Origin: a virus | Taxonomy: Duplodnaviria; Heunggongvirae; Uroviricota; Caudoviricetes | IMG/VR virus record: IMGVR_UViG_3300037454_000603 | Coordinates: 15,646-79,645 of that record | DNA length: 64,000 nucleotides | Reading direction: 5' to 3' (one strand) | Part shown: positions 8,076 to 62,107 of the stretch, piece by piece | How positions within the stretch are numbered: the stretch's first letter is position 1 | How the letters are laid out: every line of letters starts with the position of its first letter | Made by a program: the position numbers and the translations under genes | The notes under the pieces: model-generated | Told to the model about the DNA's origin: nothing | The model's database searches: none | What the model saw: the letters and a program-made list of their open reading frames with translations, nothing else

Positions 8076-8295
8076 AAGTTATCCTCCTGCCTAAGAGCTA
8101 TTTTAGATTATCATTTGATAATCTTTTTTTTCTTTCTTTTTTTATTTTCTATAAATATTATATCATATTTTTTAAAAAAATTCAAATATTTTTATTTCAT
8201 TTTATAGTAATTATCTATTCTTCCTGCGGCATTAAGTGCAGACAATGTTATTATAAGAATAAGAACTATGATTGTTATAATGACAAACTTCATAA

Positions 8296-8532: not shown

Positions 8533-8533
8533 A

Positions 8534-8800: not shown

Positions 8801-8927
8801 AAAGACTTTTAGGAAAGCTTTCCTAATTTCCTTATAAACTTTAGATTCAGAACAATTTCATCGCCTGTTTCAGTATCAGTAAGTGTGAGTTTAAAATCAG
8901 TATAATATCCCATTTTTACTTCCTTTC

Positions 8928-9233
8928 TTAACGTAAAACAATCTCAATTTTTCTTTTGCTTATTCGGAACTCTCTATTACATTTTTTACAAAAAGTTATA
9001 GAACTATCATTAAAATCATTAAATTTTTGCATATCTTCTTGAATTTCATTGAGAGCATCTGCAATATGAACAGTTTCATATACTTGCTCTTCATAATTGA
9101 AATGATTAAGATGGCATTCATAATTAAAATGATTAAATATCTCTGTCCTTACGTCTTTGTAATTATAAAAAATTTTTGGCTTTAAAGGCATATTTTTTGT
9201 GCTTTCTGTCACTATATAAATAATTTGTTCCAT
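8928..9233 (-). CDS. Hypothetical protein with a C-terminal zinc ribbon
   Basis: Intact ORF; promoter module at 9250-9300. Confidence 0.5.
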   Translation of the reverse strand: MEQIIYIVTESTKNMPLKPKIFYNYKDVRTEIFNHFNYECHLNHFNYEEQVYETVHIADALNEIQEDMQKFNDFNDSSITFCKKCNREFRISKRKIEIVLR

Positions 9234-18264: not shown

Positions 18265-19065
18265 TTAAATTTTCTCCCACTCTTCATCAGAAATTTTATT
18301 TATTTCCGTTTTTTTATATGGTAAATTTTCAGCTTTACACCATTTACGAATTGCATTATCAGATACTCCATAGTTTTTCCCAATTTGAACGAAAGATAAC
18401 GTTCTAATTAGCTATTTTAATTCTTGCCTATCAGGACGATTTTTTACAATTCGGTGCTATTTTTTATAGCAATCAACACAATAAGTACTCGTATTTCCTA
18501 TCTACTTACCACAAATTATACAAGTATTATTTGTTTGTTTATTATTTATCTATTCATTACTGCTACAAGTATCTTTTTTAAACTTATCTTTGTTTACTAC
18601 TCCATTTTTACGAATAGGATAACTTATACCCTCTTGAATCCAAGTCTCTCCAATATTTATACTGCTTATAGTTCGCTAAGATACATTAAACTATTTACCA
18701 ATATCTTCTTGACTCAATGTTGTAGTTGATAAAAGAGTAATTATATCCTAAGCCTACTATTTAGTTAATTTTACTGGTAAAGAAGTATTGCCGCCATCAG
18801 TTAGATTATATCCATTTAATGGATTATGACTATCATAATATTTTATCCAGTACTTTTCCCTATTATTTAATTCTTCAAGGCTACATTCCTCTACAACTTC
18901 AAATAAAAAGTTATCAATTCCATATTTTCTCATTGCTCGGTATATAGGATAATCATCTGTCTAATAATGCCCTCTATGTGCTTTCCAGCGTCTGCAAATA
19001 TTTTGAGACTATCCTATGTATATCTTTCCATTTATCTAATTAGTAATTTTATAAATACCGATCAT
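18265..19065 (-). CDS. GIY-YIG homing endonuclease (MIGIYKITN-TAG-INGKIYIG-TAG-S) with a C-terminal HTH tail (...WCKAENLPYKKTEINKISDEEWEKI). Multiple in-frame TAG codons.
   Basis: Motifs read by hand; TAA stop at 18265-18267; promoter-like module at 18090-18140. Confidence 0.65.
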
Positions 19066-19194
19066 TATTACTCACCTCAAATACAAGTAACAATTAAAAT
19101 CGAACCCTCTAAGAAAATAGAACCAATTTCTTCTATTCGTTGAACTATAATAAATATAATGCACTATCCATTAGACTACACGGGCATATCAAAG

Positions 19195-25442: not shown

Positions 25443-26573
25443 TTATTTCAACCCCAAAAATTTTACAAGTTCTTTTGCAGTTTTTCCTTCAATAGAAAGT
25501 TTATCATCGTAAGCTAAATAAGCCCAATTTGTATGCTCATTTAAGTTCTTTTTAACCCAATCAGAAAATTCTTTTCGACTCGCGGCGCAGTGTTCTTTTT
25601 TCCAATTTTCAACCATTTCTTTAACAGCTAAAGTCATACCGATAGCAGCTTTATACTGTAAGCTAACTTTATGAAAGAAGTCACGGTATTGACCAAAATA
25701 AGCTAAAAACTCATCTTGCTCATTTTCAAGTATCATTGCCAGTGCTCTTTCTACTGTTAGAACGCCGTTATTCGCCATTCTATGGAGTTCTACATACTTC
25801 TCAGTTTTGATTTTAACTCTATCGAAATCTGCATCACAAACTACTATTCCTTCATTATTGTCGCCCATATTTTTAACAAATTCACAATAATCTCTTTTGC
25901 TATTAAAATAATAATGTTTGGGGGTCTCAAAACCGCAAGCATCTCCAATCATTTCAACCGCTTCAGGATAAAGTTCTAAAAGAGTTCTCATATCTCTAAT
26001 TGAAAGCAGATAGAGAGCAGGCTCAGGGTAATCTAAAACGATACGCGTAACAGGGCTTACAAGCTCAAAAGTCCAACACTTTATCTTATTATAGTTCTTA
26101 AAATTAGATAGAGGACAAACTGCTTCAAAAAGTTCTCCATAGGTTTTGTAAGGGCTTGCTGGATTATTAATTTCGGCTTTGAAGGCGTCAATACACCCAT
26201 TGGTCGACAAATGCCATTTACCACGAGCATACCAAGCAGACATTATAGAGCCATCTATTTTTTCACTTGCCCACGCGGTAGGCCATTCAATCTGCGCTGC
26301 GTGAGACTCTCCAAGATTAAAAAATCTTTCAAAGGCGAAACGAACAACTTTAAAATTCTGAGTTGAATCGAGAATAAGCCCTCTTGCTTCTCGGCATATT
26401 TTTTCATTAAAATCTGAGTTAATTTGGTTATACTTAAATAATACAAATCCATCATCCCAGCTTATTTTTAAGTTATATGGAGCACCAGAAAGGAGAGCCT
26501 CCCAATCTTTATGCTCATGTATGAATTTAACTATTTCTAACATCTTCTTCTCTCCATTTCCATTTATATCCAT
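25443..26573 (-). CDS. T4 Rnl1-like RNA ligase (motif I EKIDGS; FFNLGE; motif IV EGIVVC; motif V KIKTEKY)
   Basis: Motif order and spacing match RNA ligase 1 by inspection. Confidence 0.7.
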   Translation of the reverse strand: MDINGNGEKKMLEIVKFIHEHKDWEALLSGAPYNLKISWDDGFVLFKYNQINSDFNEKICREARGLILDSTQNFKVVRFAFERFFNLGESHAAQIEWPTAWASEKIDGSIMSAWYARGKWHLSTNGCIDAFKAEINNPASPYKTYGELFEAVCPLSNFKNYNKIKCWTFELVSPVTRIVLDYPEPALYLLSIRDMRTLLELYPEAVEMIGDACGFETPKHYYFNSKRDYCEFVKNMGDNNEGIVVCDADFDRVKIKTEKYVELHRMANNGVLTVERALAMILENEQDEFLAYFGQYRDFFHKVSLQYKAAIGMTLAVKEMVENWKKEHCAASRKEFSDWVKKNLNEHTNWAYLAYDDKLSIEGKTAKELVKFLGLK

Positions 26574-26688
26574 ACGCAGTTTTTCTATCTCCTTTACATA
26601 CTAAACGAATAGAATTTGCTGCACTTCTTGTTTTTCCTATTGCTAAAGCAGCTTCCTCACAAGCTTCATATGTAGCTATAAAATTTCC

Positions 26689-27410
26689 CTATAAGTCATA
26701 TTGATTAACAGGCCTTGCTCCTGTTTTTCGATATGGCTTTGGAGCTGGTTCTCCATGTTTTACAAATAAATATTTTAACGCTCTGCCGCCAGTAGATAGA
26801 GCAGTACTTACCATACTTTCTGTCATATTTAACGCATGAGCAGCAGCACGACCGGACTCATAAGTATTCAAAAAATTACCTTTTAAGTCATAACAGTCAA
26901 TGCAAATTTTTCTTGAAGATTGCATAGCTTTTGTTGCTTTTTCTTTTTGCCTTTGCTTTGCTTCTTCTGACCACCCTTTGAAACCAGATAGAGCATAATA
27001 CACTGTATTACGTCTACATTCATATTCTTTGGCAATTTCATCAACACTAAAGCCTTTGTCCCACAGATTCTTAAATTCCTAATAGTTATACTTCTGCGCA
27101 CCTTCGCCACCAATTGTCGAGTTATACCCTTCTTGGTAAGAGTTATATTCTGCTATCCAATAACATTCTCTATCAGAAAGCGCAGAATTATCTTCTACGT
27201 ATTCAAGCTCTTTTGCTTGAAAATGATCAATACCATATTTTCTTATTGCTTTATAAAAATGTGTATCATGACGGGAATCTCCCTCAGAAGAAAAAGCTCT
27301 ACGTTTATGTTCATGCCATCTATGTTCTATTGTAGAAATTGTCTATCCAATATAAACCTTATCGTTTATATCATTAGTAATTATATAAATGTATCCCATT
27401 TATATCGCCT
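26689..27410 (-). CDS. GIY-YIG homing endonuclease (MGYIYIITNDINDKVYIG-TAG-T...HRWHEH) with a C-terminal NUMOD-like DNA-binding tail. Two in-frame TAG codons.
   Basis: Hand translation; ORF 26689-27003 is its C-terminus. Confidence 0.65.
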
Positions 27411-34693: not shown

Positions 34694-36157
34694 TCAAGCC
34701 CAAGTAAACTCGGGCTTAGTTAAAATTTCTTCCATTGCTTCAAAAGCACTTTTATTAATCAAAGTCTGCATGAATTTGAAAGTTCCAGTACTTTGACCAG
34801 AAACATAGCCAACATTTTCACTACATCTTGAAAGAGTATTGTTGCTTCTAGATTCAACATTCCAGTAGATAATCTTGCTCATAGGAACTCCAATATATTC
34901 AAACTTTTTCTTCCACTTTTCAGCTATTGATTCGCAATAATCCTGTCCTGCCCAACTATTAACTTCCATATCTGAAATTATTACAATTGCTTTGGGAGCA
35001 TCATGACTCATTCGAGCAACTTCATAAACCTTAGCAAAAACTGCATCAAGGTTAGTTGACCAACCCCAGTTAGCACTCATGACCTGTCTTACGCACTGAG
35101 TTAAAGACCAATTATCAGAAATCTTATGGAAAGAAGGACTAGAGGAAAAATTACAAAAAATATTATGATATTCTCCATGATTTCTCTGGGCAAAATAAAT
35201 TGCAAGACCAACAGCAGTAGAAATAGGTCGATAACCATCGTATTCCATGGAACCACTGGTATCAGCTACTACGAGTATATTATCACTTTCGCCCACATAG
35301 TTAGGAAGTGCCTTCCACTGTTCCTCAGCTATAGTGTCAAGCTCTCTAACACTCTTGGAGCAAAGAGGCTTGACAATATCATAAGGATAAAGAGTTGCCG
35401 CATTAACCTTGGCTTCTCCCTTTACAAGAGCATCCTTATACTTCTGGAATCTCTCAGGAACTCTCTTGTTAAAAGTAGAAATATATCTACTCATAGCTAC
35501 GGAAGGAACGCCCTCAAAGTTAATTTCATTCCACTGGCCAGCGCTCATCTTCTTTTCGACCACGTCTATATACTTTCTCATTGTGGAAAGAGTCTTACGA
35601 TAAGTTCTAGGAGTTACACTAAACTTTTTGCAAAACTTATTTGCCAACTTTCTGGTTTCGTCAGATGAAGTATTAATAGATGGCATCCATTTAGCAAGCA
35701 AAGTAATGGGTTTATTCTCTCTCATATTCTTCACATCAGTTCGAAATTGAGTCTCGACAAACTGCCACATTTCAGTTTCAACTGATGTTCCTTCAAAAAC
35801 AAAAAGGTCGTCCCATCTACCTGTATCAACAATCTTCTGGAAATTCTTCTTTATCTTCTCGGAATTAAATTTGGCAAGCTCTTTGAGAAGGAGTCGCCCA
35901 ATTCGTCTCTCTCCAAGACCACCATCTCTTACATTTCTAGCATAAAGGACGAGGTTATCCGCAAGTTCTTCATTTTCACGTCTCGCCGCCTTCCAAGTCT
36001 GAATTATATCTATATCTTCTCTATTCCTCATACCACCAATGTTAGCGAAAAGATCAAGCAAATCGCCGCCATCAGTGGTATTAAAACAACGTCCGCCATT
36101 CTCAGTATAAGTCTTAATTGCTTCATTCTTAAACATATCTGCAAAACTCATTTCCAT
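34694..36157 (-). CDS. rsr: Ro60/Rsr orthologue. N-terminal TROVE domain plus C-terminal vWA domain (MIDAS motif DTSGSM).
   Basis: Domain order and the MIDAS motif read by eye; an adjacent Y-RNA-like element lies at 36190-36292. Confidence 0.6.
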   Translation of the reverse strand: MEMSFADMFKNEAIKTYTENGGRCFNTTDGGDLLDLFANIGGMRNREDIDIIQTWKAARRENEELADNLVLYARNVRDGGLGERRIGRLLLKELAKFNSEKIKKNFQKIVDTGRWDDLFVFEGTSVETEMWQFVETQFRTDVKNMRENKPITLLAKWMPSINTSSDETRKLANKFCKKFSVTPRTYRKTLSTMRKYIDVVEKKMSAGQWNEINFEGVPSVAMSRYISTFNKRVPERFQKYKDALVKGEAKVNAATLYPYDIVKPLCSKSVRELDTIAEEQWKALPNYVGESDNILVVADTSGSMEYDGYRPISTAVGLAIYFAQRNHGEYHNIFCNFSSSPSFHKISDNWSLTQCVRQVMSANWGWSTNLDAVFAKVYEVARMSHDAPKAIVIISDMEVNSWAGQDYCESIAEKWKKKFEYIGVPMSKIIYWNVESRSNNTLSRCSENVGYVSGQSTGTFKFMQTLINKSAFEAMEEILTKPEFTWA

Positions 36158-37238: not shown

Positions 37239-37315
37239 TGGTTTCTCGGCTCCGAATTGAACGGAGGTTTCAAGCTTTTAGAGAGCTGAATGCTGACCAC
37301 TTACACTACCGAGAA
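37239..37315 (-). tRNA. Amber suppressor tRNA, anticodon CUA (loop CTCTAAA), U1-A72 Gln-like acceptor, CCA encoded
   Basis: Acceptor TTCTCGG/CCGAGAA; D-stem GTGT/GCAT; anticodon stem CAGCT/AGCTT; T-arm CTCCG-TTCAATT-CGGAG. Confidence 0.8.
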
Positions 37316-37321
37316 ATATTA

Positions 37322-37990
37322 TTAAATTTTATCCCATTCTTCATTGGAATAAGAATTAATGTCTTTTTTTCTTCTTGGAAGTCCATATTTATCACACCAT
37401 TTTCTTACTGCATTATCGGATACATTACAATTTTTTCCTATTTCACTAAAAGAAAATTGACGTATCCTTTGCTTAAGTTCTTCTCGTGTAAAAGGACATT
37501 TCCATTTCTTCTCTTTCTTTTCCTCTTTTTCTTCTTTTTTTCTTATGGGATAAGATTGATTCTTTTGCTTCCACATTTTCCCATTGTTTATCTAGGATAT
37601 TAAACAATGACTAACGTTATATTTCTTTGCAATTTCTTCCCCAGTAAGAGAAGCGTTTTTTAAATCATATACAATTTCATTTGCAATATTCCAGTTAATT
37701 TTGTACTACATATTTTCAATAGTACTCATATTATATCCATTCGGGGTCATTGTATTATATTTATTTATATAATATTTTTCTTTATCATTAAGTTCTGTCA
37801 AGGCGCATTCTTCTATTACCTCGAAAGAGAAGTTCTCTTTTCCATACTCTCGCATTGCCTAATATAATAAAGTATTCTTTGTATTCATTTTATTCTAATG
37901 TTCTCTCCATCTTCTTCTAATATCATTGGACTATCCAATATAAGACATTCCATTAGATTTATTAGTAACTTTATAAATTCCTATCATTTA
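37322..37990 (-). CDS. GIY-YIG homing endonuclease (MIGIYKVTNKSNGMSYIG-TAG-SNDIRRRWREH-TAG) with the shared C-terminal HTH tail. Four in-frame TAG codons.
   Basis: Hand translation; ORF 37322-37576 is its C-terminus. Confidence 0.7.
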
Positions 37991-38889: not shown

Positions 38890-39008
38890 TCGAGATGACA
38901 GGACTTGAACCTGCAGCTTCTTGCTCCTGGCGCCAATGGCTGGAGTTGCACCAGCTAATACTCTTCACTGACCAAAGCAAGCCGTCTACCAAATTGACTT
39001 ACATCTCG
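38890..39008 (-). tRNA. Aberrant ~119-nt tRNA-like gene. Acceptor (CGAGATG/CATCTCG) and T-arm are good, but there is a ~45-nt extra segment between the D-arm and T-arm. Anticodon unresolved.
   Basis: CTTGC...GCAAG brackets a 50-nt insert. Confidence 0.4.
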
Positions 39009-39018: not shown

Positions 39019-39780
39019 TTAAATTAAAGCCCATTCTTCATCTGTATAGTTATTTATATCTGTCTTTCTTCTAGGTAGTTTTTCAAAATCACACCATTTG
39101 CGAATAGTATTATCAGAAACATTATATATTTTTCCTATTTGAGTAAAAGGTTTTGTACGAATTAATTGTTTTAACTCTTCCCTTGAAGGTCGCTCAACTG
39201 TTCTAAAAAATAACTAATTACATTTTACACATCTAGTAGATTTATAATCTATTTCTGCTCCACAATCTATACAATATTTTTGTTCTCTTTTATCTCCATG
39301 TCTTTTTTTAGATATTGCTTGAATGGGATATTCTCTATCATGTTTCCAATATCGTCCAGTATTAATACCTTGTATCATTTCTACAGATATATTCCACTTT
39401 TCTGCTATTTCTCTATGAAACATATCTGTCTTTTCTAAATCATTTATTATACCAATAATTTTTTCCTTATTAATTTCATTTCCAGAGCTATCTCCGCCAA
39501 TAGTCAAATTATATCCCTCAAAAAATGAATTATACTATTTAATATAGCTTTTTTCTTTTTCATTCAACTCAGAAACTAAACATTCTTCAAGAACTTCAAA
39601 AGTAAAATTTTCAAAACCGTATTTTCTTATTGCTCTGTATAAAGGTTTATCATAATTATGATCATTAGGATTAAATGCAGTTGATTTATGACCTCTCCAT
39701 CTTTTCTTTATATCTTTGCTCTATCCAATATAAACTTTTCCGTTAATCTAGTTTGTAATCTTATAAATTCCTATCATATT
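39019..39780 (-). CDS. GIY-YIG homing endonuclease (MIGIYKITN-TAG-INGKVYIG-TAG-SKDIKKRWRGH) with a zinc ribbon and the shared HTH tail. In-frame TAG codons.
   Basis: Hand translation; ORF 39214-39507 is an internal piece. Confidence 0.65.
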
Positions 39781-39890
39781 TACCACTCTCCATACATCAT
39801 TAACCACTCATTTAATATAAAATTAAGGGAAGAGTGAGTGGTTACTCTTATCAATAGGTTTGCAATTCCTATCTATCCCCTAATATCAAT

Positions 39891-40260: not shown

Positions 40261-41040
40261 TCAAATTTTTTTCCAATCTTCTTCAGTATAATGCTCTATA
40301 TCTGCTTTTCTATAAGGAAGATTTTCATTTTTACACCATTTGCGAATTGCATTATCTGTAACTCCAAACATTTCTCCAATTTTAGTAAAAGGCAAAGTTT
40401 TAATTAATTGTTTTAACTCTTCTCGATTAGGTCGATTTACTTTACGATTTTTTAATCTATTACATTTATCACATCTAGTAGAACCAAACAATATTTTAGT
40501 ACCACAATCAATACAATACGTATCTGGATTTTTAATTTTCTTAAAATATTCTTCTTTTTCTCTTAATGGATACTGTAAAATATCTTTCACCCAACTCTTA
40601 CCAGTATTAATATTAGATATTAAAGACTAATCGACTTGATACTTCTGTGCTAAATCATTCTATGAAATTTCAGTATAAAGTAAAGCCTTGATTATTTCAT
40701 CGACCTATACCTCATTTAATTTCAAAGGATGTGGAGTATTGCCTCCGTCATCCTAATTATAACCATAGTCATTATCATTGGAATGATAATAACTAATCCA
40801 ATATTTTTCTCTATCATTCAATTCTTCAATAAAACAACTTTCAATTATCTCAAATCGAAAATTCTCTATTCCATATTTTCTTATTGCCCTATATAGTGGA
40901 TAATTATAGCCCTTATTGTTTGGATTATGGGCAGCACATTTATGATTTTGCCATCGTTTTTTAATATTTCTACTCTACCCAATATAAATTTTTCCATTAA
41001 TTAAATTAGTAATTTTATAAATTCCTATTTCTACATTCAT
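40261..41040 (-). CDS. GIY-YIG homing endonuclease (MNVEIGIYKITNLINGKIYIG-TAG-S) with a zinc ribbon and the HTH tail. In-frame TAG codons.
   Basis: ORF 40261-40590 is its C-terminus; terminator hairpin at 41090-41112. Confidence 0.65.
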
Positions 41041-41147
41041 ATAATCGTCTCCTACAAATTATTTCCTACAACAATATAATATACAAAAGGAAGAGGGTAG
41101 GAGCCTCTTATCATAGAGTGATCAAATTCTACTATCCTTTTGTATTT

Positions 41148-41857: not shown

Positions 41858-42141
41858 ATTATTTTATATATATTCTAACCAAGAATATAAATGTTATAAC
41901 CCCACTCCTAGGTTTTATTTTATACGCTCCTATCCCCAGAATAGGTGGCATACAATACCTAAGTCCAAAAGTACCATAGAATTACATCGCGCCGCGACCA
42001 CTATGATATTTCTACTTGTTATAACTTCCCAAGTTTATCTTTAATTAAACCCCTTTCTTTTTAAGGACAAGACACTATTTAAATACAATCAGTTCCCAAA
42101 ACAGATGTTATTTAATAGCTGTAAGTGTCTTTGATGAATGG

Positions 42142-42216
42142 TTTCAGCGGAAGGATTTGAACCTTCGGTGTCCTGTTTTAGAGACAGGTGCGTTAAACCC
42201 ACTTCGCCACGCTGAA
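42142..42216 (-). tRNA. Second amber suppressor tRNA, anticodon CUA (loop CTCTAAA), U1-A72. Its sequence differs from copy 1.
   Basis: Acceptor TTCAGCG/CGCTGAA; anticodon stem CCTGT/ACAGG; T-arm GAAGG-TTCAAAT-CCTTC. Confidence 0.8.
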
Positions 42217-45807: not shown

Positions 45808-46500
45808 TCAGTGTGCGCTTGTATCAAATTCATCTACATATTTCCAATAATATCCTTTATATAACTATCCGTCATTAAAATGATGTTTTAGAATTGTACC
45901 TTTTAATCCTAAAGAAGAGGCCGCTTGTCTATTTGAAGAAAAAGTATTTATTAAATTCCAATCTTTATCATATTGTAATACTGTTTTACCTTTTCCTCCG
46001 CTAGTATGCGGTTCAATTCTATTTACAGGTCTATTATCATCTGAAAATCTCCACTAATAATTTCCTGCACTGTAACATCCGCCTCTTGCTGCTCTCTAAA
46101 TATTAGCATTTTCAATACCTGTTTTTGCCGAAGCTTCTCCACAAGATTTAAATTCTGCAACAAAATTTCCCTCTAAATTATACTATTTTATAGGTCTAGC
46201 ATTAAAAGAAGTACCATTTCCTTCTCCTTTTCCTTCCGTCATGTTATATCCATTTTTATAACTATCATAATATGATATCCAATATGCTTCTCTTAATATT
46301 AAATCTTCTTCTGGGCACTCTTCAATAACTTCAATATTAAAATTATCAATGCCATATTTACGCATAGCAAAATATAGATGAGTATTCTTATTCTAATAAG
46401 AAGATTTATGTTCTTTCCAACGGTGTTCTATATTATATCTAGTCATTCCGATATAAAGTTTGTTATTTATTATATTTGATATCTTATAAATATATCCCAT
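45808..46500 (-). CDS. GIY-YIG homing endonuclease (MGYIYKISNIINNKLYIG...HRWKEH) with C-terminal NUMOD-like repeats. Five in-frame TAG codons. Ends with TGA.
   Basis: Hand translation; ORF 46183-46365 is an internal piece. Confidence 0.65.
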
Positions 46501-46528
46501 TTTCAAAACTCAACTCCTTTATTACAAT

Positions 46529-48390: not shown

Positions 48391-48703
48391 ATCCCACCCT
48401 TTGATTATATCCATATTCATCACTATGGTAGTATTTTGTCCAATATTTTTCTTTTTCTGTCTATTCTTCTTTTGGACAAACCTCAACAATTTCCCAAGTA
48501 AAATTTTCAAGTCCTTCGTTCCACATAGCATCATAAAGCTATCCTTTAATTCTTTCAATATTGCATCCACGTTTAGCATGTGTACGCCAACGAGATAGAA
48601 AAGAAGCAGATGTTTTTCCAATATAAACTTTTTGATTCTTAATATTGGTTATTTTATAAATACCACCGTTATCTTTGTCTCCACTTAAAACTCTTTTAAA
48701 CAT
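48366..48703 (-). CDS. Short GIY-YIG nuclease (GGIYKITNIKNQKVYIGKTS...RWRTHAKRGC). Two in-frame TAG codons. Apparently in frame with the upstream TAG-rich coiled-coil ORF.
   Basis: Hand translation; TAA stop overlapping the ASCH-like gene. Confidence 0.5.
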
Positions 48704-49447
48704 TTCTTCTATTCTAGTTTTATAATAAACATCATATATAAGCTTATAAATAACTTCCTATTTAGAAAAAGTTAAAGCTAAAGTTTTAAGTTTCTCAATA
48801 TCTGCCTTCTCTATATCATTAATCTAAACTCGATAAAAATCGGCTTGCTATTTTCTTTCTTCATCAAGCTTAAAGCGAGCAATTATCTCTTTCTATTTAC
48901 TCTCATATTCCTGAATCTCTTTATTTAGAGTTTCCCTTTGTTTGGATATTTGCTCGCTAAATATGAAAAAATCTTTATCAAGCTCCTCTTTTTTATCTTT
49001 ATAATTAGCCTTTAAATTTTCTAGTTCAGTCTAAAATTTTTTAGTTTCTTCTGAAATTTGCATAGTCTACTCTTGACTTCTACGCTGTGCCGCCGCCCTG
49101 TCCATTTCTTCCACCTATTGACGGCGGCGTAAATAATCTTGAGTTAATTCTTCAGTTTTTTGCTAAAAATTCTATTTTTCTTTGTTATAATTTCGGTTAA
49201 GTTGCTCAAGAGAACGACGAAGTTCTTCCTGTTTAATAAGATGTTCTTGGGTTAATTCCTTATCAAAAATATCTTTCTTTTCTTTTAGACCATTAAGAAC
49301 TTTACTTTGAGATTTTTTAAATTCCTTCTTTTCAACATCTCTTCCTCGTGCAACTAGACAAATATACATTGCCGCGGCACCAAGAAGAAAGCAAAGTATT
49401 ACAAGTAAAATTGTTACTACCATTCGGTTATTCCTCCTTCTTTTCAC
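48704..49447 (-). CDS. TM-anchored coiled-coil protein (MVVTILLVILCFLLGAAAMYI...) with at least eight in-frame TAG codons
   Basis: ORF 49172-49447 continues through TAG codons; the boundary with the downstream GIY-YIG gene is unresolved. Confidence 0.35.
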
Positions 49448-50210
49448 TTACAACCTTATGGTCTCTTGCCTTTCCCTCTTCTATATATCTTAAAAGAGTT
49501 TCTAAACTAATTTCTCTATGACAAGAATAACGCTCAGGACAATAATGAAGTCTTTTACACTTGGGTACAAATATTTCTAATTCTTTTACAAGATATTCCC
49601 ATTCATCAGAATAAATGCAAAGAGCATCTAAAATTTCATTACACAAATCTCTAATTTCCCAATAAGCCCTTTGACATAATCTTTGTTCCATTATGTTTAT
49701 AAGTTCTCTAAGTCCTACTCTAAACATCATTTTAGTTGAATAACTTAAAGGCAAAATTTCACTAGCATCTTCTTTAGCAATACCCATTTCCTTTAATGCT
49801 TTCATTGTTTCATTTGCATTTACCATAAAAAAATCATAAAGATCTTTTGCTTCACTATTTTTTTCTATATCCTTTGGAGTGATATAATCAAAATTATCAT
49901 AATTGATATAACGAGTTGAGGCCTGAAGACGAGTGACATCAATTATATGTGTATAAAGTTCTCTAATACACTTTGCAGACCAACCATCAAGTACCATGTA
50001 AATTTGAGGAAATTCAAGTGTTCTCCAATGCCCACTTTTAAAACAATCAACTCCTCGTTCAAAATTTTTCTTATTATTTTTAATATCAGCTCCCCAACAA
50101 ACTCCTGCTGCAAACCCTGCAAAAGTAAGAGGTTCGTCTGTTGTTTCACTTAGGATAATAACTCTACCCTTCTGGTCAAATCGTCTGCTCAGCATAATTT
50201 TCCTCCTCAT
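49428..50210 (-). CDS. ThyX-like (flavin-dependent thymidylate synthase family) protein. The canonical RHR motif is replaced by YTH.
   Basis: RLCQRAYWEIRDLCNEIL matches the ThyX helix RLCHRAQWEIRELAEAM; upstream segment ELYTHIIDVTRLQASTRY. Confidence 0.5.
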   Translation of the reverse strand: MRRKIMLSRRFDQKGRVIILSETTDEPLTFAGFAAGVCWGADIKNNKKNFERGVDCFKSGHWRTLEFPQIYMVLDGWSAKCIRELYTHIIDVTRLQASTRYINYDNFDYITPKDIEKNSEAKDLYDFFMVNANETMKALKEMGIAKEDASEILPLSYSTKMMFRVGLRELINIMEQRLCQRAYWEIRDLCNEILDALCIYSDEWEYLVKELEIFVPKCKRLHYCPERYSCHREISLETLLRYIEEGKARDHKVVSEKKEE

Positions 50211-50795: not shown

Positions 50796-52457
50796 TTAAA
50801 TCTTGACTTCTGTTTTTTCTTTAAGTATCTGTCTCACATATTCCATTGTAAGACTACCACAAATCTTTCCAAAGCCTTCTATAGCTTGAACAGTATCAGG
50901 CTCTTCTTTAAGGCAATCTTCATAAACAAGACGATTAATATTCTTTGCAATAGTTCCCATGTGAGTCTCGTTCCAATCCCAAGGAATTATTTGATCTTCA
51001 GCAAGTTTTTCCAGAATTTTCTCAATACGACGACGAGTTACTACTGTTGCGGCATAGTTACGTAAAGCTTCCTTTTTCTTAAGCTCTTCTGGGTCGACAG
51101 GTTTCTTATGGTCTTTATGAACTTCACTAAACTTCTCAGAAACAAGCTTTAAATATATTGGACGTCTACTATCATTATCTTTAAGACGCTCCTGTGATTT
51201 TACTACTACACCTTCGCCGCAAGGCTGGGCATTAAGATTTGTTTGCCCAATAAAAGAATAAACATGGTCCCAACCTCTAAATGGACCAGTATAAAATATA
51301 GGTGCCATATAGATAGTTTCCATAACCTTCATTGTTGACTTAGCAAGACCATTAAAAATAGCAAGCACATCTTCAAAAGGTAACCAACTTTCTTCTACAG
51401 TATCCCATATATCAAAAAGATAAAATTTTTTATAAAAAACTTCATCATATGAAATTGTATGTTTACAATTATGCACAATAAAATTATTAGCGATAAAATT
51501 GGCTATATTTTCGTTGCCACTCATACAAATATCATAACAATCTTCTTCACCGACATCCTCGATAGAAATAATATAGTCAAACTCATAATCAAATTTAGGC
51601 TGATTCTTAAATTTAGTATGACTATTTCCGTGACAATCTTGACAAAGTACTTGCCAATTATCTTCAGTATTATGAAAAGGATTCTCATCTTTATGATGAA
51701 GATTTAGTCCATTTGTGGCTCCGCATATCTCACATTTTCCAATTCTATCCTTGTATTCTTTCTGTTTTCTAAATATCTCTCTCGTACCAATTCCATAAGT
51801 TCTTTGATGAGTATTCCTTGTAATAAAATCTGTAATAGCAACACAATCATACTCAGAAAGTTTTCCTAATTCTACCCACCCCTTAGGAGTTAAAAAAGGA
51901 TGATTAGCAGTAGCTTTAATTGAATAACCTTTATGAGTTGTCAGCTTATAAACCTTTTTCTTTCCAGTATAAACAATTTCTTGTATTTTATTGGGCTGAA
52001 TTATATCAGTTTCCAAATCAAGAGAATAAATACTTGGATAGCCATTCCTCTCCCACCAGCTCTTAGTTCTTCCCTCTTCTGGAGTATGAGCATATTCATA
52101 CATTTCTTTCAGCGTCATTTCTTTTTTTCCTTTTCCTGCGCTGACTTTTTTAATAACTGTATCTCCAGAAAGACAAAGCCATTCGCCAAACAAAATATAA
52201 CGACCGTAATTAGTTGCAATAGCTACGGCCTGTTTAGGTAAACGTTGAGTCCACTCCCAAAAACCATTAAGAGTATTCATTTCATTTAACGGTCGGCGAC
52301 GAGAGAAAGCAACAACGCTATCTGTTTCGGAATCATAGGAAAATGCACTTGAGGATCCGTCAACCTTCTCACTTATTGTAATCTCTTCTCCTATTTTAAA
52401 ACAATTGATATATTTTTCTTTTAAACGTTCTATATCTATATACTTTTTTTGTTTCAT
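50796..52457 (-). CDS. Rnl2-like RNA ligase (motif I EKVDGSS; FGEW; FDIWD; EGVVVK). Interrupted by an intein (residues ~95-330) that carries an HNH domain.
   Basis: Intein boundaries FGEWL/CLSGDTV and FIVHN/CKHT; HNH CEICG...HHKDENPFHN...LCQDCH. Confidence 0.65.
   Translation of the reverse strand: MKQKKYIDIERLKEKYINCFKIGEEITISEKVDGSSSAFSYDSETDSVVAFSRRRPLNEMNTLNGFWEWTQRLPKQAVAIATNYGRYILFGEWLCLSGDTVIKKVSAGKGKKEMTLKEMYEYAHTPEEGRTKSWWERNGYPSIYSLDLETDIIQPNKIQEIVYTGKKKVYKLTTHKGYSIKATANHPFLTPKGWVELGKLSEYDCVAITDFITRNTHQRTYGIGTREIFRKQKEYKDRIGKCEICGATNGLNLHHKDENPFHNTEDNWQVLCQDCHGNSHTKFKNQPKFDYEFDYIISIEDVGEEDCYDICMSGNENIANFIANNFIVHNCKHTISYDEVFYKKFYLFDIWDTVEESWLPFEDVLAIFNGLAKSTMKVMETIYMAPIFYTGPFRGWDHVYSFIGQTNLNAQPCGEGVVVKSQERLKDNDSRRPIYLKLVSEKFSEVHKDHKKPVDPEELKKKEALRNYAATVVTRRRIEKILEKLAEDQIIPWDWNETHMGTIAKNINRLVYEDCLKEEPDTVQAIEGFGKICGSLTMEYVRQILKEKTEVKI
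51468..52175 (-). other. Intein (Hint domain plus HNH homing endonuclease) inside the Rnl2-like ligase
   Basis: Block A CLSGDT at the N-terminus, block G VHN-C at the C-terminus. Confidence 0.6.
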
Positions 52458-52459
52458 TT

Positions 52460-53390
52460 TAATCTATCCTCCAAATATTTTAAATTTATTTTATTCTTAT
52501 CTGTATATGGAATTATTATTAAAGGAATATTATGTTCTTTACAATACTGCTATTTTTTTAAATCATTTTCCTTTAAATTTTTAAAACTTTCCTCTCCTCC
52601 AAAAAAATCTATTGGTTCATAATGTTGCTATCCATTAAATTCAATTAAATACTTTAATATATTATCTTTAAACAAAGCAAAATCAAATCTTAATACCTTT
52701 TCTTTTCCTTTTAAATCCTAAAAAGAATATTCTCTTTCTACTCTATAATTCATTGTAGATAGTATACTAGCAATAATTGTTTCACCCTATGATTTTATAC
52801 AACCACAAGACTATGTCTAATTAGATATTAAATTATAACTATTTACTGTGACATAATTCCCGCAATCACATTTACATAACCAATAAGCGTGGGTATTATT
52901 ATTTTTTCTATTTTTCATTGCTTCCTCATCAATTTTTAAAGCAATCAATTTTCCAAATCTTTGATTGGTCAAATCTTTTCGTTTTTCTTTTAATTTATCT
53001 AAATTTAAGCATCCACAAGATTGAGTATCTCCAGCTTTTAAATTGAGAGTCTTAGCTATAATTTCTTTTCCGCAATCACAGCGACATAGCCATGCAGTTC
53101 TTAACATACCAGAAGGCTCTCTTATAGATTCAACTTGCTTAAGAACGGTTAATCTACCAAAACGTTGTCCTTCAAGCTAATTACCAACTGCTTCTCTAAC
53201 TCTTTCATTTCTTAGACAGCCGCACGATAAAACTTTTCCCTATCTTAAATCATTTCCATAAACGTTTTTAATTGTACCACATTCGCACTAACAAGTCCAT
53301 TTAATCCTTTTAGTAGTACGAGGATTTTCTTCATGTAATACAGTTAATCTTCCAAATACTTGTCCTGTTAAATCAATCTTATTACCCATT
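52460..53390 (-). CDS. Nuclease-like protein. Three tandem zinc-ribbon repeats (FGRLTVL...WxCxCDCG...SCGC) plus a C-terminal PD-(D/E)XK/DUF559-like domain (LRFDFAL...IEFNG-TAG-QHY). At least six in-frame TAG codons.
   Basis: ORF 52817-53107 is a central piece; hand translation of both flanks. Confidence 0.45.
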
Positions 53391-55086: not shown

Positions 55087-55401
55087 CTATTCTGTCTTTT
55101 CATCTAAATTTGGAAAAAGACAAAGATAATGTAAAACTTCATTAAAACAATCATAAGGCTCTTGAAGCATTAAAGCATGACCTGATTTAATTACGGGAAT
55201 ATTGCCTATTAACTTATTGCCCTCTTCGTTTATAAAGCCATATCTTTCTTTTAAAATAGGAATAATAACACTTAAAGCAATTTTAAATTCCCTATCATTA
55301 AGTTCTATAAATTTAGGCTGAGTTGCTTTTAGAAATTGATGAAATAAATAATCAATTTCAACAGTCATATTGTCATCTTTATAAAGCAAATAATTTTTCA
55401 T
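55087..55401 (-). CDS. Hypothetical protein
   Basis: Intact ORF. Confidence 0.45.
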   Translation of the reverse strand: MKNYLLYKDDNMTVEIDYLFHQFLKATQPKFIELNDREFKIALSVIIPILKERYGFINEEGNKLIGNIPVIKSGHALMLQEPYDCFNEVLHYLCLFPNLDEKTE

Positions 55402-56519
55402 TAGAAAAATATCATCTCCTGCTGAGTTTTTTCAGCAATCCTTCCAGCCTCTCCCTTCTTATTCATACCTTGTCCTTTTTTATATCGTTTAGCAATAGAA
55501 GGGCACCAATAAAGAATATTCTGAGCTCTGGTTGCGGCGACATAAGCAATTTTTCGCTCTTCTTCGCAATAACATCTTACTCCTACTGTTATAACATTAG
55601 GAGCCTCAAGGCCTTTACTTGTATGTACTGTTAAAATTTTTACGCGATTACTGCTCATTAATTGTTCTAATTCAATTAAATCTAGGTCTCCACGTTTAAA
55701 TGTTACATTTGGAATTCCTCTTTCATCAAGAATTTCTTGCGCCGCGGCAAGTTCATTATTGGTTCTTGTTAAAATAAACCAATCGCCCCAATTTCCATTA
55801 ATTTCTAGTTCTTCTATTGCATCATCAAAAGAGCATCTTTCCACAATACCTTTTTGAGTTTTGTGAGGAACCGATTTTGGACTCATAGGATTGTAAGAAT
55901 TTAAGAAGTCTTCTGCAAAAGAAAGAATATTTGGCGCATTACGATAATTTTCTACTAAGAAATATTTTTTATAATTATCGTCTTTATAGAAATTTTCCAG
56001 ATATTTAAGTGAGCTACCTTTAAAGCCGTAAATTGCTTGTCGATCATCTCCAACCCAGAACCAATTCTTAGCAGGAATCTTTTCCAAAAATCCATATTCT
56101 AGTGGGCCTATATCCTGACATTCATCAATTAGAATGTGTTCAACAGGAAAGAACTGATGACTTTTTAAACATCTTGTCTTTTCTAGAATTTTGTCAAATT
56201 CAAATTGTTTAGTAAAGATTGAAGTATCTATACCATTATAAATACAAATATCACTTGCGTAAGCATGAACCGTACCAATAAAAGCTCCAAGACAAACATC
56301 TCCTAGTCTTGCCTTCATTTCCTCTGCCGCGGCGGTGGTGAAAGTTATTGCAACAATACTTTCGGGCGGCACATGGCGTTCTTCTATTAGGTATTTAATT
56401 CGTTCGGTAAGAACCCTAGTTTTGCCTGCTGATGCACAAGCTAAGCATAAGATTTTAGGTTCAGTAGCTTCAACAACTTTTCGTTGTCTTATATTAAGTT
56501 TCATGTAGAATTCCTCCAA
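55401..56519 (-). CDS. Compact UvrD/PcrA-like SF1 helicase (ASAGKTR; DECQD; VGDDRQAIYGFKG; HTSKGLE)
   Basis: Helicase motifs in order. Confidence 0.6.
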   Translation of the reverse strand: MEEFYMKLNIRQRKVVEATEPKILCLACASAGKTRVLTERIKYLIEERHVPPESIVAITFTTAAAEEMKARLGDVCLGAFIGTVHAYASDICIYNGIDTSIFTKQFEFDKILEKTRCLKSHQFFPVEHILIDECQDIGPLEYGFLEKIPAKNWFWVGDDRQAIYGFKGSSLKYLENFYKDDNYKKYFLVENYRNAPNILSFAEDFLNSYNPMSPKSVPHKTQKGIVERCSFDDAIEELEINGNWGDWFILTRTNNELAAAQEILDERGIPNVTFKRGDLDLIELEQLMSSNRVKILTVHTSKGLEAPNVITVGVRCYCEEERKIAYVAATRAQNILYWCPSIAKRYKKGQGMNKKGEAGRIAEKTQQEMIFF

Positions 56520-56582: not shown

Positions 56583-59500
56583 AAAAATATTAATCGTTCT
56601 AACCGTTCCAGCTATGTAATAAGAAATAGAAATAAGACTTATTGTTTTGTGTTGATATTGTATAATTAAGTTCCAAAGCTCCATAAGTTAAATGACTTTC
56701 AAAAATAATATCTCCAATTTGGAGGGAACCTAAATTTATATTACTATCTATAACCTTAATACCTTCTCTTAAAGTACCGCCGTCTGAAAATTGACCAATT
56801 CTAAATGAAAAATATCTAGTATCATTATCATTAGCTAAAAAGTTTTCTATTCTTTCAAAAAGTTCCTAATCGGCAGAACTTACCGATGGTTTTCCTCTCA
56901 TTAGCCATCTAGCGTATTTTTTAAAACTAATTTCGAAATCTTGCTAAGTCGCAATGCCGCTAGGTAATGAATCAAAAAAGTAAACTTTTAACAAATTACC
57001 ACTTTCACCATAATAAAAATTGCCAGCATTTCCAGAGGAACCTATTAAATTTCCACTAAATTGACCAGGAGTTAATGCAAGACCTTGAAATTCTTCATTT
57101 ACTTCCGTCTATGAAAAAGCAATATAATTCCAACAAGCGGATTGAGTGGCATTACCTATAACACAATAATTCGTTACAACGAAGGGAATTGTATCGCATG
57201 GGCTCGAAGCTAACTCACCTAAATAGAAACCTTTAACTGGTTTTTTAGTTGCGGTTGTACTAGGATCGAGAGGAGGGGCAGGAGGTGGATTAGAACCGTG
57301 GCTAACAAACTAATCAATATTTAAATTAGATTGTGCCATATCTGTTGATTGCATAGTTAAAATCCAAGTATCAACTATTCTTTCTCCTTCTCCCGCGACT
57401 TCATGAGCTACATCATAAACTCTTAAAGTCATAGTTAATCCCGTAAAGCTTTCATTATAAGTTGCATCGAGTGATACTGGTACAACTCTTAACATGCCAT
57501 ATGGATTCATTCCACTAGGAGTTACACTTCCTGCTCCAGAGAAGTTAGTTACATAAAACTCATTTTCTACATCATAGGCATCTATTCTATCTTCATAAAG
57601 TAAAGGATTGATTGAAATATTATTTGTATCAGCAAAATAATATAAATAAGTTCTATTAAGATTTCTATCATAAAGAATAACACCTGGATAATATTCTGAA
57701 TAATAGTAATTATGAGAATAGTTATTCATTCTGAAGTAAGGAACAATACATAGGTTACTCTCTGAATACTGCGAGAATAAATATCTTAGCTAACCCTATG
57801 CATATTGTAGCGCCGAGAGACCAGTTCTGCTACTATTATCAAAATCATCAAACTTAACATAATTTCTTAAATCGTCAACTGGAACAGGAACAACTTCACA
57901 GTGAACGTCTTTATAGAAAGGTTCCTAAGATAAAACCGCATACATAGCCCATAAATACTGTGTATTTTGCCAAAGTTGAATTAATTCATTCAAAATTGAA
58001 TCAAGTAAGGGCTTTAATTTATTGCCAAAAATAAACTCACAAATTCCAGTTAAAACTTCACTAATAACCCAGAAGTTTCTATTTAAATCTTCAACCTCGA
58101 CATATCTTAGATATCGCGGCATTAGTAAACGAATCCAATTGCCTTTTTCGTTTGTAAAATCTAAATTATCACTATATTCAATAACAGCTCTAATTGCATC
58201 TGGGTCTCGTGCCTGTTGATAAGATGTCCCACTTTTATTTTCCCAAGGAATAACCCAAGTCGTATCATCTGAGCATTCCCATCTAAAAGAATTACCTGCA
58301 TCTGCATTCTTTAAATCTCCAACTTTAACACTGCCATATAAAGTAGCATTATCCCCAAAACTTCCGTCAAAATCGCTTGCAAGTTGACAAATGCTTTCAT
58401 TCCAGAACTAATTGCCAGATTCACCTAAATAGTCTGTTAAAGTTGAATTAAAATCTATTGAAGCATCTATATGTCCGAAAACAGTATCGTTTCCAATTGC
58501 GCTGCCTAAGAAAGGCCCTTCGGGAGAAAGAATAATTCTATCAAGCATACTTGTCCATATATTATTAATAGAGGCAGACAAACTTGATAAAGTAGAAGAA
58601 TTAAAATCATTATAATTTAACTAGCTATTTTTATCATATAAATCCTAAAATAACTAATCAAAAGTTGTATAAGCCATTTAGTTTATCACCTCTTTTATTA
58701 TGGATTAATATAATCTAAAATTCCACTTGAATCAAAAATATAACCTTTCATTGGAAGAGCCTAGCCAAGACTTCCATCGTTAACATAAGTAGGAGTATTA
58801 TAATTGTCCCAAGTTGGATCATTATCCCATTCTCTAAACATACTTATCTAATCATCAGAAACCTTAAATTTATTATTATCACCATCGTATTCAAAGAAAA
58901 GCTATAAAACGTGAGTATGTCTACCACCAACATAAGTTGCTTTATTGCCTTGTATACTAGAACTGTAGCCATCAAATAAATTCCAAATTCCTGAAACTTT
59001 ATAGTAATGCTATAAAACATAGGTAACTGTATGACCAACTCCTCCGCCGGCAATATAATCATTAATAGCATCTATTACTTCTTGCTAAGTCGGATTATCT
59101 GGTAGACCTAATTCATCAGCTGTTACATACCAATATCCAGTGGCACTTCCACCAGTTACTACTATTTGTTCAACAGTATTAGTTTCTTTGTTAAAATGAT
59201 ATAAGACCTGTGCCGTAGTTTGAGCATTAACTCTATAAATTGTTTCATTAGGTTTACTTGTAGCATTAAGCTACGGAAGTCTCCATTTGTCTGAAGAACC
59301 CTAAGCAGGATTTTCTCTTAAAAGACTAGCGGGGAAATTTCCCACGAAACCTTCAGCTTTATTAATAGGAATAACAGTATCTATAAAGCCCACTGTGACT
59401 CCATTCTCATCATTAATTGGATACGAAAATTTATATCCATCAATATCAATTTCTGGTAGGTCTGCACTATCTAAATATTCCATAGGAACATATCTAACAT

Positions 59501-61780
59501 AATGACATAAAATATTCTAAGTCCAATACCCCTAATAACCTTGCGCCGCCCCCTCATAACCTCCAAGCCAAGAAGAAACACCAATTGAAGTTAAAATATA
59601 ATTAATTTTATTTTTATCAAGATAATCTTCGCTATCCACTTGTTCAAATGCATATTGAAGATATCTCTAACTCATATCTGCACTTAAACCTTTTAGACCA
59701 CAAACGTTACTAAGATTATTTCTTTTATTAAATTTAACTTCGCTTTTATCATTTATTTTAAAGAAAGATAACTTCCAGTCATCATTAACTTTTTCAAGCT
59801 TTTCTGACATAAAAACGGCTTCCTAGGTCTAGTCAGTTGGGCTAAGCGGATTCTAAGAATCATGATTATTAAAATATCCTTGAATACTATTAAGTCCAGA
59901 AGTAGTTCCCGCGGCACCAATAGTCAAATTACATTTATATCCAGTTCGTTTTCCAGAACTGTCTAAAACTTCTCTTACAGGACCATTTATATTAATAGGA
60001 GCTTGCATTGTAACTGACTAACCTACAAGACTTTCTATATTTGTTCCTTTAGGAAAATATTCACCAATTTTTAACAAAGTTCCCTAATTAGCAATTGATA
60101 ATCCTTTAGTATCATACTCAACCTAACCGCCAACCTCATAAGAAGAATAATCATAATCTGTCACTAATTCTCCTTTATAACAATTATCGCCAGAATTCCT
60201 TGCTGTAAACTATACTGGTAGTCTATGTTTAACTTCTTCTTCAAGAGAGGTTCTAAATATAACTTCACTAGTATTATTAATAACTGTAGCTTGATCTGAT
60301 TCAACCACTCCAACAAGTGACTTAGTTCCAAAGATTAATCTTTCAGCGGCATCATAGAAATTAAAAGATATATCTGCGTTTAAAAAGTCGCCGTCTCTCA
60401 CGCATCTCAAAACAGGTTTAACTTCTAATTCTGTTTCATATTTATAATTGTTTTGAGTAGATTCAAGTATCATATCTCTTGTTTCTAAAAGCCCTCTAGA
60501 ATTATAGTATAAATAAAGTCCTGAATAGGGGAAAAAGTATTTAGTATGTTCGTTATTAATGCCATACAAATATCTTCCAAAAAATCTACCAGCAGCGCGT
60601 GCCTAGCGGGCTGGTGCCACTTCATTCATTGGTACAGTTACGTCAATACCAAAAGTTAAAGGCGCTTTAGTGGCATAGAAAGTACCTCCACCTTCTAAAT
60701 CCTAAAGACCATAATAGGAACTAAGAGGTTTAAAAGTTTCAACATTTCTAGCTCTATCATAAAAATATAAGAAAGGATAAGATTCATAATAATAATAATT
60801 ATGTTCATAATTCTAATACCTAATACAAGGAAGCACACATAAATCATACTTTGAATATTTTTGCTTTAAAAACTAAATACTTTTTTTAATCTTTTGAAAG
60901 TTATGATTATTATTTTCTGGCTTTTCAAGAAAAGGCGGATATTCTTCATCAATATCCCATCCATTATCAAAGTTATCATATTTCTTATGTGGCTAAAACT
61001 CATTATTGGGAATATAAAGAACTTCACAATGTACACCTTCAATCCTCTACTGTTCCGCCGCAAGCAGTCCCGCGGCAACCCAAAGATATAACATATTTTC
61101 CCAAAGTTCACCAAGTTCTGTAATCAATCCTTCTATAATATCTTTCAATCCTTCTGGACCAAGCAAAAACTAGCATGCGCCAGAGATTACACTACTAATA
61201 ACCCAAAAGTTTCTATTTAAATCTTCAACTTCAACTCTACGAGTATTCATTGGCATTATTAATCGTATTGCGTTTAAAGCATCACTCTAACTCTTTGGAG
61301 AAGTAAACTAAAGTTGTGTGCCGTTTTGTATTACAGCTAAGCACTCATCGTAGCGACAAGTATTATAGTCATTATTACTTAAGTTTTTCCAAGGACGAAC
61401 AAAGTTTTCTGTGTTCTAAAAAGATAGTCCCGCGTCCCCATTTCGTAAATCATATATTGTAAATATATTATTAAAATTTCCATTAGCAAATAAAGTTTCA
61501 TTTTTATCAATTAACGCTTGAATACTTTCATTCCAAAAAGTATCTCGCTCTTGACCTGGCTCGGGATCAGGTAAATGAATAATATAATCATACAAGTCTC
61601 CTAAATCAGCTTTTTGCTGGATTCGACCAAATAGAGTTTGTATATTTGTAATGTTCTCTTTATGTAGCAATCCTTCCTAATTTTTATATGCCGCCAGCCT
61701 ATCTTTCCAATAGTTTATCTTGTCTGTATTGGATAAAAGCTTAGATAAATCCTCAATATTGGGATTATAATTAATCGCCA
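56583..61780 (-). CDS. One or more very large structural ORFs (tail-fibre or receptor-binding-like) dense with in-frame TAG codons. Internal boundaries unresolved.
   Basis: Continuous minus-strand coding frame across TAG codons; track ORFs 57310-57729, 60210-60569 and 61416-61670 are fragments; no promoter modules inside. Confidence 0.4.
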
Positions 61781-62107
61781 TTAACCTTCACCACCACTAT
61801 CCTCTTCTTTATTAATTTGAAATCTATTCCAAATATCCTTCAAAGAATCGAATCCATTCATGGCAATAAAAGCAGTTATAAAACCAACAATTATACCAAT
61901 TCCAACTGCTTTTAAAATTAAGCCGTAGCATATAAAAGAAGCTATCATGCATACTAAAACTCCTACAATTAATGTTAAAGCTTTTGTTGGAAATGATTTT
62001 GGTAATACTTGCTTTAAAACTTGAACAATAATTGATGTTATCGCGGCAAGAACACCTAAATCAGTTAAAGTCGCACCAGTTGTTAAACCTAAAATCTGTT
62101 CTAACAT
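61781..62107 (-). CDS. Holin-like small membrane protein (three TM segments)
   Basis: Hydrophobic segments; position in the lysis/structural block. Confidence 0.4.
   Translation of the reverse strand: MLEQILGLTTGATLTDLGVLAAITSIIVQVLKQVLPKSFPTKALTLIVGVLVCMIASFICYGLILKAVGIGIIVGFITAFIAMNGFDSLKDIWNRFQINKEEDSGGEG

Follow-up and report, generated by a model that had tools for sequence, protein, structure and literature searches.

The window analysed here is a stretch of 64,000 nucleotides from a virus of the class Caudoviricetes (positions 15,646 to 79,645 of IMG/VR record IMGVR_UViG_3300037454_000603), and its minus strand carries, at 50796..52457, an RNA ligase gene interrupted by an intein that bears an HNH domain. 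The precursor gene is a single unbroken open reading frame (ORF) of 553 codons ending in a TAA stop, with zero in-frame TAG codons. Its start ATG shares bases with the TGA stop of the gene upstream (ATGA), a ribosome-binding site GGAGGA stands ahead of it at 52467..52472, and the identical gene was called in an independent Logan assembly. A preliminary description of this locus, made from the sequence alone, had named a set of motif strings, all of which were located in the 553-residue ORF: EKVDGSS at residues 30-36, FGEWL at 90-94, CLSGDTV at 95-101, CEICG..HHKDENPFHN..LCQDCH at 242-276, FIVHN at 326-330 and CKHTISYDE at 331-339. These matches far exceed chance, and the approximate limits first proposed for the intein proved to be its exact ones, residues 95-330. 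The GC content of the intein (32.3%) shows no compositional anomaly relative to the exteins (34.6%) or the window (32.4%).

Judged by its sequence, the insert is a canonical class-1 intein with every splice-junction residue in place. Block A supplies Cys1 (C95, within CLSGDTV), block B reads T183-A-N-H186, with H186 aligned to His73 of the Ssp DnaB intein, the block F aspartate is D309, block G is H329-N330, and C331 is the +1 nucleophile. Across the alignment of the 28 closest cluster representatives, no substitution occurs at H186, D309 or N330 and almost none at C95 and H329. The precursor matches both the Pfam family Intein_splicing (PF14890, E 1.4e-17, 68 bits) and NCBIfam TIGR01445, and a phmmer search of PDB sequences returned the Ssp and Npu DnaB inteins (E 3e-14) as two blocks on either side of the HNH region. 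These are the closest solved HINT domains (1MI8, 6FRG, 4O1R) and share block A CxSGD, block B KATANH and block G IVHN with the ligase intein; they differ in their host, a replicative helicase, and in that their structures were solved for engineered mini-inteins that have no endonuclease. An AlphaFold (AF2) model of the precursor (mean predicted local distance difference test score, pLDDT, 78.9; 60-89 over the intein) shows the intein as a beta-rich HINT domain, which Foldseek aligns with DnaB, RecA and DnaX mini-inteins at template modelling (TM) scores of 0.75-0.82. The intein is very probably active, with splicing competence predicted.

The HNH core lies between blocks B and F, the usual seat of an intein's endonuclease. 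What had been noted as an HNH motif is a complete module in which the metal-binding and catalytic residues are all present: a zinc site of the form CxxC...CxxC (C242, C245, C272 and C275), the catalytic residues H255, N267 and H276, and a beta-beta-alpha element predicted at residues 251-279 of the precursor model. C242, C245, H255, N267, C272 and H276 are invariant among 28 relatives, and the zinc-site cysteines overall are invariant or nearly so. A dozen HNH families of PHROGs match the precursor, and, with a cut-off of 21.4 bits, the HNH family PF01844 reaches 21.3 for the precursor and 23.3 when the intein is scored alone. The domain most likely acts as a homing endonuclease.

Residues ~110-140, in the N-terminal half of the HINT domain, form a short helical insertion, a spot that IMG/VR relatives (620-residue precursors) expand by about 67 residues into a winged-helix-like element; this insertion may be a DNA-recognition region. 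The ligase inteins with the extra insert are about 305-313 residues long (L007 2983..4845, also L008 and L009; P0128 and P0130), and the insert, which contains ALKEGLIIEKNEQYIITEKGINKI, sits at the position of the short helical insertion of the window intein.

The host ligase and its empty site

Removal of residues 95-330, the check proposed in the preliminary description, leaves a continuous product of 317 residues, of which residues 24-196 match PF09414 positions 1-166 of 171 in one stretch at 80.3 bits; the unspliced precursor matches the same family in two stretches at 66.7 bits (E 3.6e-18). We searched 5.8 billion proteins with the spliced ligase sequence and examined the best 120 matches. 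The top homologues are 310-318 residues long and the twelve closest are intein-free, including one (P0001) of exactly 317 residues that is 88% identical across 100% of the query. In the alignment, the intein-free proteins cross the junction uninterrupted as GEWL-[V/T/A]-KHT. The locus that encodes P0001 (L002) is syntenic with the window, in the order UvrD-like helicase, ligase, ThyX and GIY-YIG, and an ungapped comparison of 954 nucleotides shows that within about 25 nucleotides on each side of the site the two differ only in the +1 codon, GTA (Val) in L002 and TGT (Cys) in the window. The empty site of the L002 allele reads TTTGGCGAATGGCTT followed by GTA AAA CAT ACA, and the insertion point is TTTGGCGAATGGCTT|GTAAAACATACAATT. 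The single PF09414 stretch, the homologue length and the empty site together establish that the extein is continuous and the insert precisely delimited. With the HINT fold, the HNH residues and the splice-junction residues all canonical, and the excised product continuous, the interpretation as an intein-interrupted RNA ligase is well supported.

The insertion point lies two residues past the motif III glutamate (E92), and the intein parts motifs I and III from motifs IIIa, IV and V. Since the insertion splits the catalytic motifs in this way, the precursor is predicted to be inactive as a ligase.

The extein belongs to phrog_548 'RNA ligase' (E 3e-44). Motif I K31 (KxDG), motif III E92 (FGEW), motif IIIa FYLFD (FYLFDIWD) and motif IV E415-G (EGVVVK) are invariant across 34 homologues, and the sole invariant lysine of motif V is K437 (YLKLV). 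When compared with PDB sequences, a profile of the 34 homologues detects Naegleria NgrRnl (E 2e-7) and T4 Rnl2 (E 3e-6); phmmer with the single spliced extein gave zero ligase matches in the same set. The NgrRnl alignment places K31 on K170 and E92 on the catalytic E227 (counted on the printed alignment, allowing a one-residue chain offset), and both NgrRnl residues are mutated in deposited NgrRnl structures. A model of the spliced extein (pLDDT 85.8) is matched by Foldseek to the nucleotidyltransferase (NTase) domain of NgrRnl (E 1e-8) and to full-length T4 Rnl2 (E 1e-7), the full-length superposition on 2HVR having a TM score of 0.49 but a root-mean-square deviation of 14 Å. Helices at residues 220-313 of the model make up an all-helical C-terminal domain, which may be of the Rnl2 type; the extein aligns with positions 92-304 of the 326 in TIGR02307.

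The extein has the covalent nucleotidyltransferase fold of T4 Rnl2 (2HVQ/2HVR) and of NgrRnl and DraRnl (Rnl5; 5COT), along with their motifs I, III, IIIa and IV, at 16-20% identity, and it lacks the N-terminal OB-like domain of Rnl5. It scores 32 bits with the strict Rnl2 equivalog TIGR02307 (cut-off 197.15) and 33.5 bits with the DraRnl equivalog TIGR02306 (cut-off 151.15). Because both scores fall far below the equivalog cut-offs, the label 'Rnl2-like' given in the preliminary description is true of the superfamily (PF09414) and the architecture and does not extend to orthology with the strict Rnl2 family; the NTase domain resembles NgrRnl/Rnl5 at least as well. On this evidence the spliced product is an RNA ligase of the Rnl2/REL superfamily, with ATP-dependent activity predicted. 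The closest ligases from cultured phages (~34% identity) belong to Bacillus, Staphylococcus and Listeria phages of the Herelleviridae, and all of these enzymes, like T4 Rnl2, NgrRnl and DraRnl, are intein-free. A blastn search of 50,697 deposited phage records with the gene returned zero matches; the phage lineage is uncultivated.

Distribution, selection and recombination

The intein occupies the identical site in four of the 120 best ligase homologues and is missing from the other 116. Compared with the window, the four have inteins that are 87-94% identical and exteins that are 52-60% identical; at the DNA level, alleles sharing the insertion site are ~90% identical over the intein versus ~60% over the exteins. 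A dozen nearer extein relatives are without the intein, and more distant ones have it. Such sporadic presence would be hard to explain without mobility or recombinational loss, and the element is apparently mobile.

To catalogue related inteins more broadly, we queried 1.84 billion cluster representatives exhaustively with HMMER, using only the intein, which gave 4267 matches, 21 of them with E < 1e-30. Among 28 sequences scanned for host domains (the window protein and 27 close representatives), 19 contain PF09414 and five contain ThyX. Related inteins reside in at least 18 further distinct ligase clusters (50% identity) from metagenomes, and the window allele itself was found in at least six independent datasets. 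The earlier remark that inteins in RNA ligases are uncommon holds for deposited phage genomes, none of which has both this ligase and the intein; in metagenomes the allele is recurrent.

The ligase junctions are uniformly GE(W/Y)L|C...HN|C(K/P/R/S)H, bar two shifted alleles. In these (P0129 and P0140) the intein sits two codons upstream of the usual site (GE|C...HN|C[CM][IV]KHT versus GEWL|C...HN|CKHT), which suggests site sliding or an independent insertion. Two metagenomic proteins of 360-363 residues (P0122 and P0147) carry an intein of the same HNH clade, at 43% identity, inside a small unrelated protein; their junctions read ...YF(Y/F)(I/V)E|C...HN|CKQK and apparently fall within an E-x-K motif, and the host may be a PD-(D/E)xK-type nuclease.

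We compared four intein-bearing genes at the codon level, using the proportions of nonsynonymous (pN) and synonymous (pS) differences and the ratio of the corresponding rates (dN/dS). The intein has pN 0.03-0.09, pS 0.46-0.75 and dN/dS of about 0.04-0.07, with 0.03-0.05 in the HNH region, and its pS values of 0.46-0.51 are unsaturated; the exteins have pN 0.28-0.35, pS 0.61-0.97 (largely saturated) and a raw pN/pS of about 0.5. Strong purifying selection acts along the entire intein and does not spare the HNH region, an argument that the endonuclease is functional. Moreover, pS is lower in the intein than in the exteins, which indicates a more recent common ancestor for the intein copies than for their host genes. 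In none of the 171 pairs formed by 19 intein-bearing ligases is the intein less conserved than the extein (mean identity 52% versus 34%). That an intein should be consistently better conserved than the enzyme it interrupts is the one mildly surprising feature of these data.

The window gene is also a clean chimera. Nucleotides 1 to ~195 of the gene, together with about 1 kb upstream, are 97-100% identical to L012, which has an intein-free allele (P0003); from nucleotide ~181 through to its end, the spliced gene has ~93% identity with L002 and only ~65% with L012. The crossover is sharp and lies about 90 nucleotides upstream of the insertion site, where the boundary of a co-conversion tract would be expected, a position that we regard as suggestive.

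The phage and its neighboring genes

The source is an uncultivated large phage that is TAG-recoded, tRNA-rich and homing-endonuclease-rich, and relatives lie on contigs of 84-234 kb. The window encodes 26-27 tRNA genes, including two tRNA(CUA) at 37239..37315 and 42139..42216 (-). When TAG is translated instead of ending the frame, ORFs cover 33 kb of the minus strand rather than 18 kb, and a single ORF contains as many as 28 in-frame TAGs; TAG is therefore recoded. The ligase/intein, ThyX, UvrD-like and phrog_850 genes are TAG-free. The similarity of the tRNA(CUA) genes to other tRNAs of the window is uninformative on the amino acid inserted at TAG, and one aligned position makes glutamine plausible.

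At least seven or eight GIY-YIG endonuclease-like genes are scattered among the tRNA clusters, an arrangement that recalls the seg genes of T4. Several have NUMOD or helix-turn-helix tails, and most have a TAG codon at the conserved YIG-x-S/T position. With at least seven such genes in the window, homing-type elements evidently thrive here. The Rnl1-like gene of the preliminary description is real, giving the phage two RNA ligases, and in one relative (L005) an Rnl1-like gene lies about 4 kb from the intein-bearing ligase. The coordinates of these features are collected in Table 1.

Table 1. Features of the ligase/intein gene and of other genes in the window (window positions)
Feature	Position	Strand	Evidence or remark
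Whole precursor gene	50796..52457	-	553 residues, TAA stop; same gene in independent Logan assembly
N-extein, residues 1-94	52176..52457	-	motif I K31 in EKVDG, motif III E92 in FGEWL
Class-1 intein, residues 95-330 (236 residues)	51468..52175	-	PF14890, TIGR01445, Ssp DnaB alignment, predicted fold, invariant residues
Short helical insertion, N-terminal half of HINT, residues ~110-140	52038..52130	-	precursor model; expanded by ~67 residues in IMG/VR relatives
HNH endonuclease core (predicted), residues 242-280, between blocks B and F	51618..51734	-	PF01844, HNH PHROGs, invariant columns
C-extein, residues 331-553	50799..51467	-	C331 (+1), motifs IIIa/IV/V, all-helical C-terminal domain
TAG-containing ORFs, examples	58701..61787, 56593..58677, 52454..53389, 48392..49447	-	TAG read as sense
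GIY-YIG endonuclease-like genes	3391..4203, 18268..19071, 26530..27399, 37325..37987	-	
GIY-YIG endonuclease-like genes	39022..39807, 40264..41058, 45811..46509, C-terminus of 48392..49447	-	
Rnl1-like RNA ligase (T4 gp63 type), 376 residues	25443..26573	-	PF09511 55.4 bits, phrog_562 E 4.5e-43
ThyX, intein-free	49428..50210		

Several other features of the region were recorded. At 38890..39008 (-) the Rfam tRNA model scores 49.3 bits with a 49-nucleotide insertion in the anticodon loop and no ARAGORN call; this may be a tRNA gene that is interrupted or carries an intron, in a phage with two RNA ligases. The gene at 34694..36157 (-) encodes a protein of 487 residues that matches phrog_850 'RNA-binding protein' (E 2e-113) and Pfam DUF2828 and DUF7788; it is possibly an RNA-binding protein of the Ro/TROVE type, in which case it would extend the RNA-repair theme of the region. 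The UvrD-like helicase gene at 55401..56519 (-) encodes 372 residues with N- and C-terminal UvrD domains, and the syntenic gene in L002 and L012 encodes 655-662 residues. In L012 an IS605 OrfB / Cas12f-like TnpB gene (7905..8954) lies a few kb downstream of the ligase-ThyX block.

Splicing, homing and alternative readings

We consider it likely, with good confidence, that the element is a splicing-competent and homing-competent HNH intein in a phage RNA ligase. Splicing would begin with an N-S acyl shift at Leu94-Cys95, continue by trans-thioesterification onto Cys331, and end with cyclisation of Asn330 and an S-N shift, releasing an active 317-residue ligase and a free 236-residue intein. In a mixed infection, the HNH domain would nick or cut the intein-less ligase allele at the site coding for GEWL|VKHT. 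Recombinational repair from the intein-bearing allele would then copy the intein and flanking extein DNA, the Val-to-Cys change at +1 included. The spliced ligase and the Rnl1-like enzyme would presumably repair phage or host RNAs, most plausibly tRNAs, in a genome with more than 26 tRNA genes.

Several points weigh against this account. Splicing, DNA cleavage and ligase activity, like the target of the endonuclease and the substrate of the ligase, are here predictions from sequence. The HNH score is barely at the Pfam cut-off, and motif V of the extein has the pattern K-x-V, unlike the K-x-K of T4 Rnl2. The downstream end of the putative co-conversion tract was not found around the window gene, and the crossover upstream is possibly unrelated to homing because mosaicism is general in these phages. 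Over the 171 pairs, intein identity correlates with extein identity (r = 0.75) and the small intein and extein trees show no visible incongruence, so that much of the history could be co-descent with a slow-evolving intein rather than frequent transfer. Moreover, synonymous divergence between the intein copies is substantial (dS 0.7-1.6), and therefore no observed transfer is very recent.

The same correlation, synonymous divergence and threshold HNH score would fit an intein that splices and is no longer mobile, its HNH domain a retained passenger, inactive or structural, and its distribution the product of vertical descent in which imprecise loss would destroy the ligase motif; likewise, no near-identical intein was found in very different exteins. 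We nevertheless regard this as unlikely. Idle endonuclease domains normally decay, yet here the metal-binding and catalytic residues of the HNH domain are all conserved in the 28 relatives and the HNH region is as constrained as the splicing blocks. Vertical descent also sits poorly with closest extein relatives that lack the intein and distant ones that carry it at 94% identity, and with an intein pS below that of the extein.

The excess conservation of the intein raises a different idea, that it has a role beyond selfish persistence, either as a conditional post-translational switch that times ligase activation during infection or as an HNH weapon between co-infecting TAG-recoded phages; this we hold only as a speculation of low probability. 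Outright co-option, whether for conditional splicing (e.g. redox control via Cys1 and Cys+1) or for phage-versus-phage exclusion by the HNH domain, seems to us very improbable. In its favor, the intein is the better conserved part in 171 of 171 pairs from 19 alleles, dN/dS stays near 0.04 along the whole intein against a raw pN/pS of about 0.5 in the extein, an insertion two residues from the motif III glutamate would guarantee an inactive precursor, and both junctions use cysteine nucleophiles. However, a mobile element that is repeatedly selected at each transfer, amid fast-diverging phage ligases, would give the same pattern, and the majority of ligase alleles manage well without an intein (116 of the 120 best matches).

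That the HINT-HNH segment is a permanent, non-splicing domain insertion or fusion, or an assembly chimera, has a negligible probability in our view. N-terminal HNH-Rnl2 fusions have been noted in jumbo phages (Iyer et al. 2021, PMC7824862), and their architecture differs from that of the ligase intein. Here Cys1 and His-Asn|Cys+1 mark the exact ends of the insert, motif III and motif IIIa fall on either side of it, and its deletion restores both a continuous PF09414 match and the length of the homologues. An assembly artefact was rejected, as the identical gene is present in an independent assembly and the allele in at least six datasets.

The closest described counterparts are the HNH inteins in ThyX of Mycobacterium cluster C phages (such as Gizmo, Lukilu and Cane17), a Methanomassiliicoccales virus and the huge phage LR756500, which have the same class-1 HINT domain with HNH between blocks B and F and align with 92-93% of the ligase intein at ~25-35% identity (~25% for Mycobacterium cluster C). 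They likewise lie inside a catalytic motif of a nucleotide-metabolism enzyme (the RHR motif), but their host is ThyX and their +1 residue is Ser. LR756500 was considered as a deposited example of the ligase intein and rejected, since its intein sits in ThyX. RtcB inteins (NF038162 'intein-containing RtcB family protein') also have RNA-repair ligases as hosts, but RtcB is an unrelated, GTP-dependent fold. The entry IPR021122 is, we presume, the REL/Rnl2-type domain. An RNA ligase under this entry is included among the intein hosts of actinobacteriophages, and the HNH-type inteins of these phages are reported in DNA polymerase, minor capsid, terminase and ThyX only, not in RNA ligases (10.1101/2025.01.02.630785). 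Knowledge of in-frame HNH inteins, which are described as rare, goes back to Dalgaard et al. 1997, and our full-text searches brought up no description of one in an Rnl2-type ligase.

The mechanism proposed here is a textbook one, and the element is an ordinary example of it; what is new is the host protein, not clearly described before, and the insertion site. The catalogue of inteins thereby gains motif III of a phage Rnl2-like RNA ligase as an insertion site. It also gains a new clade among the rare in-frame HNH inteins, one found in at least 18 diverged ligase clusters from metagenomes and related to the ThyX HNH inteins. For practical use, the element offers a compact DnaB-like splicing domain and a candidate HNH homing endonuclease whose target site is defined in the 317-residue allele. 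Overall, these ligase genes form a natural series of intein-plus and intein-minus alleles in which homing and co-conversion could be studied in uncultivated, stop-codon-recoded phages.

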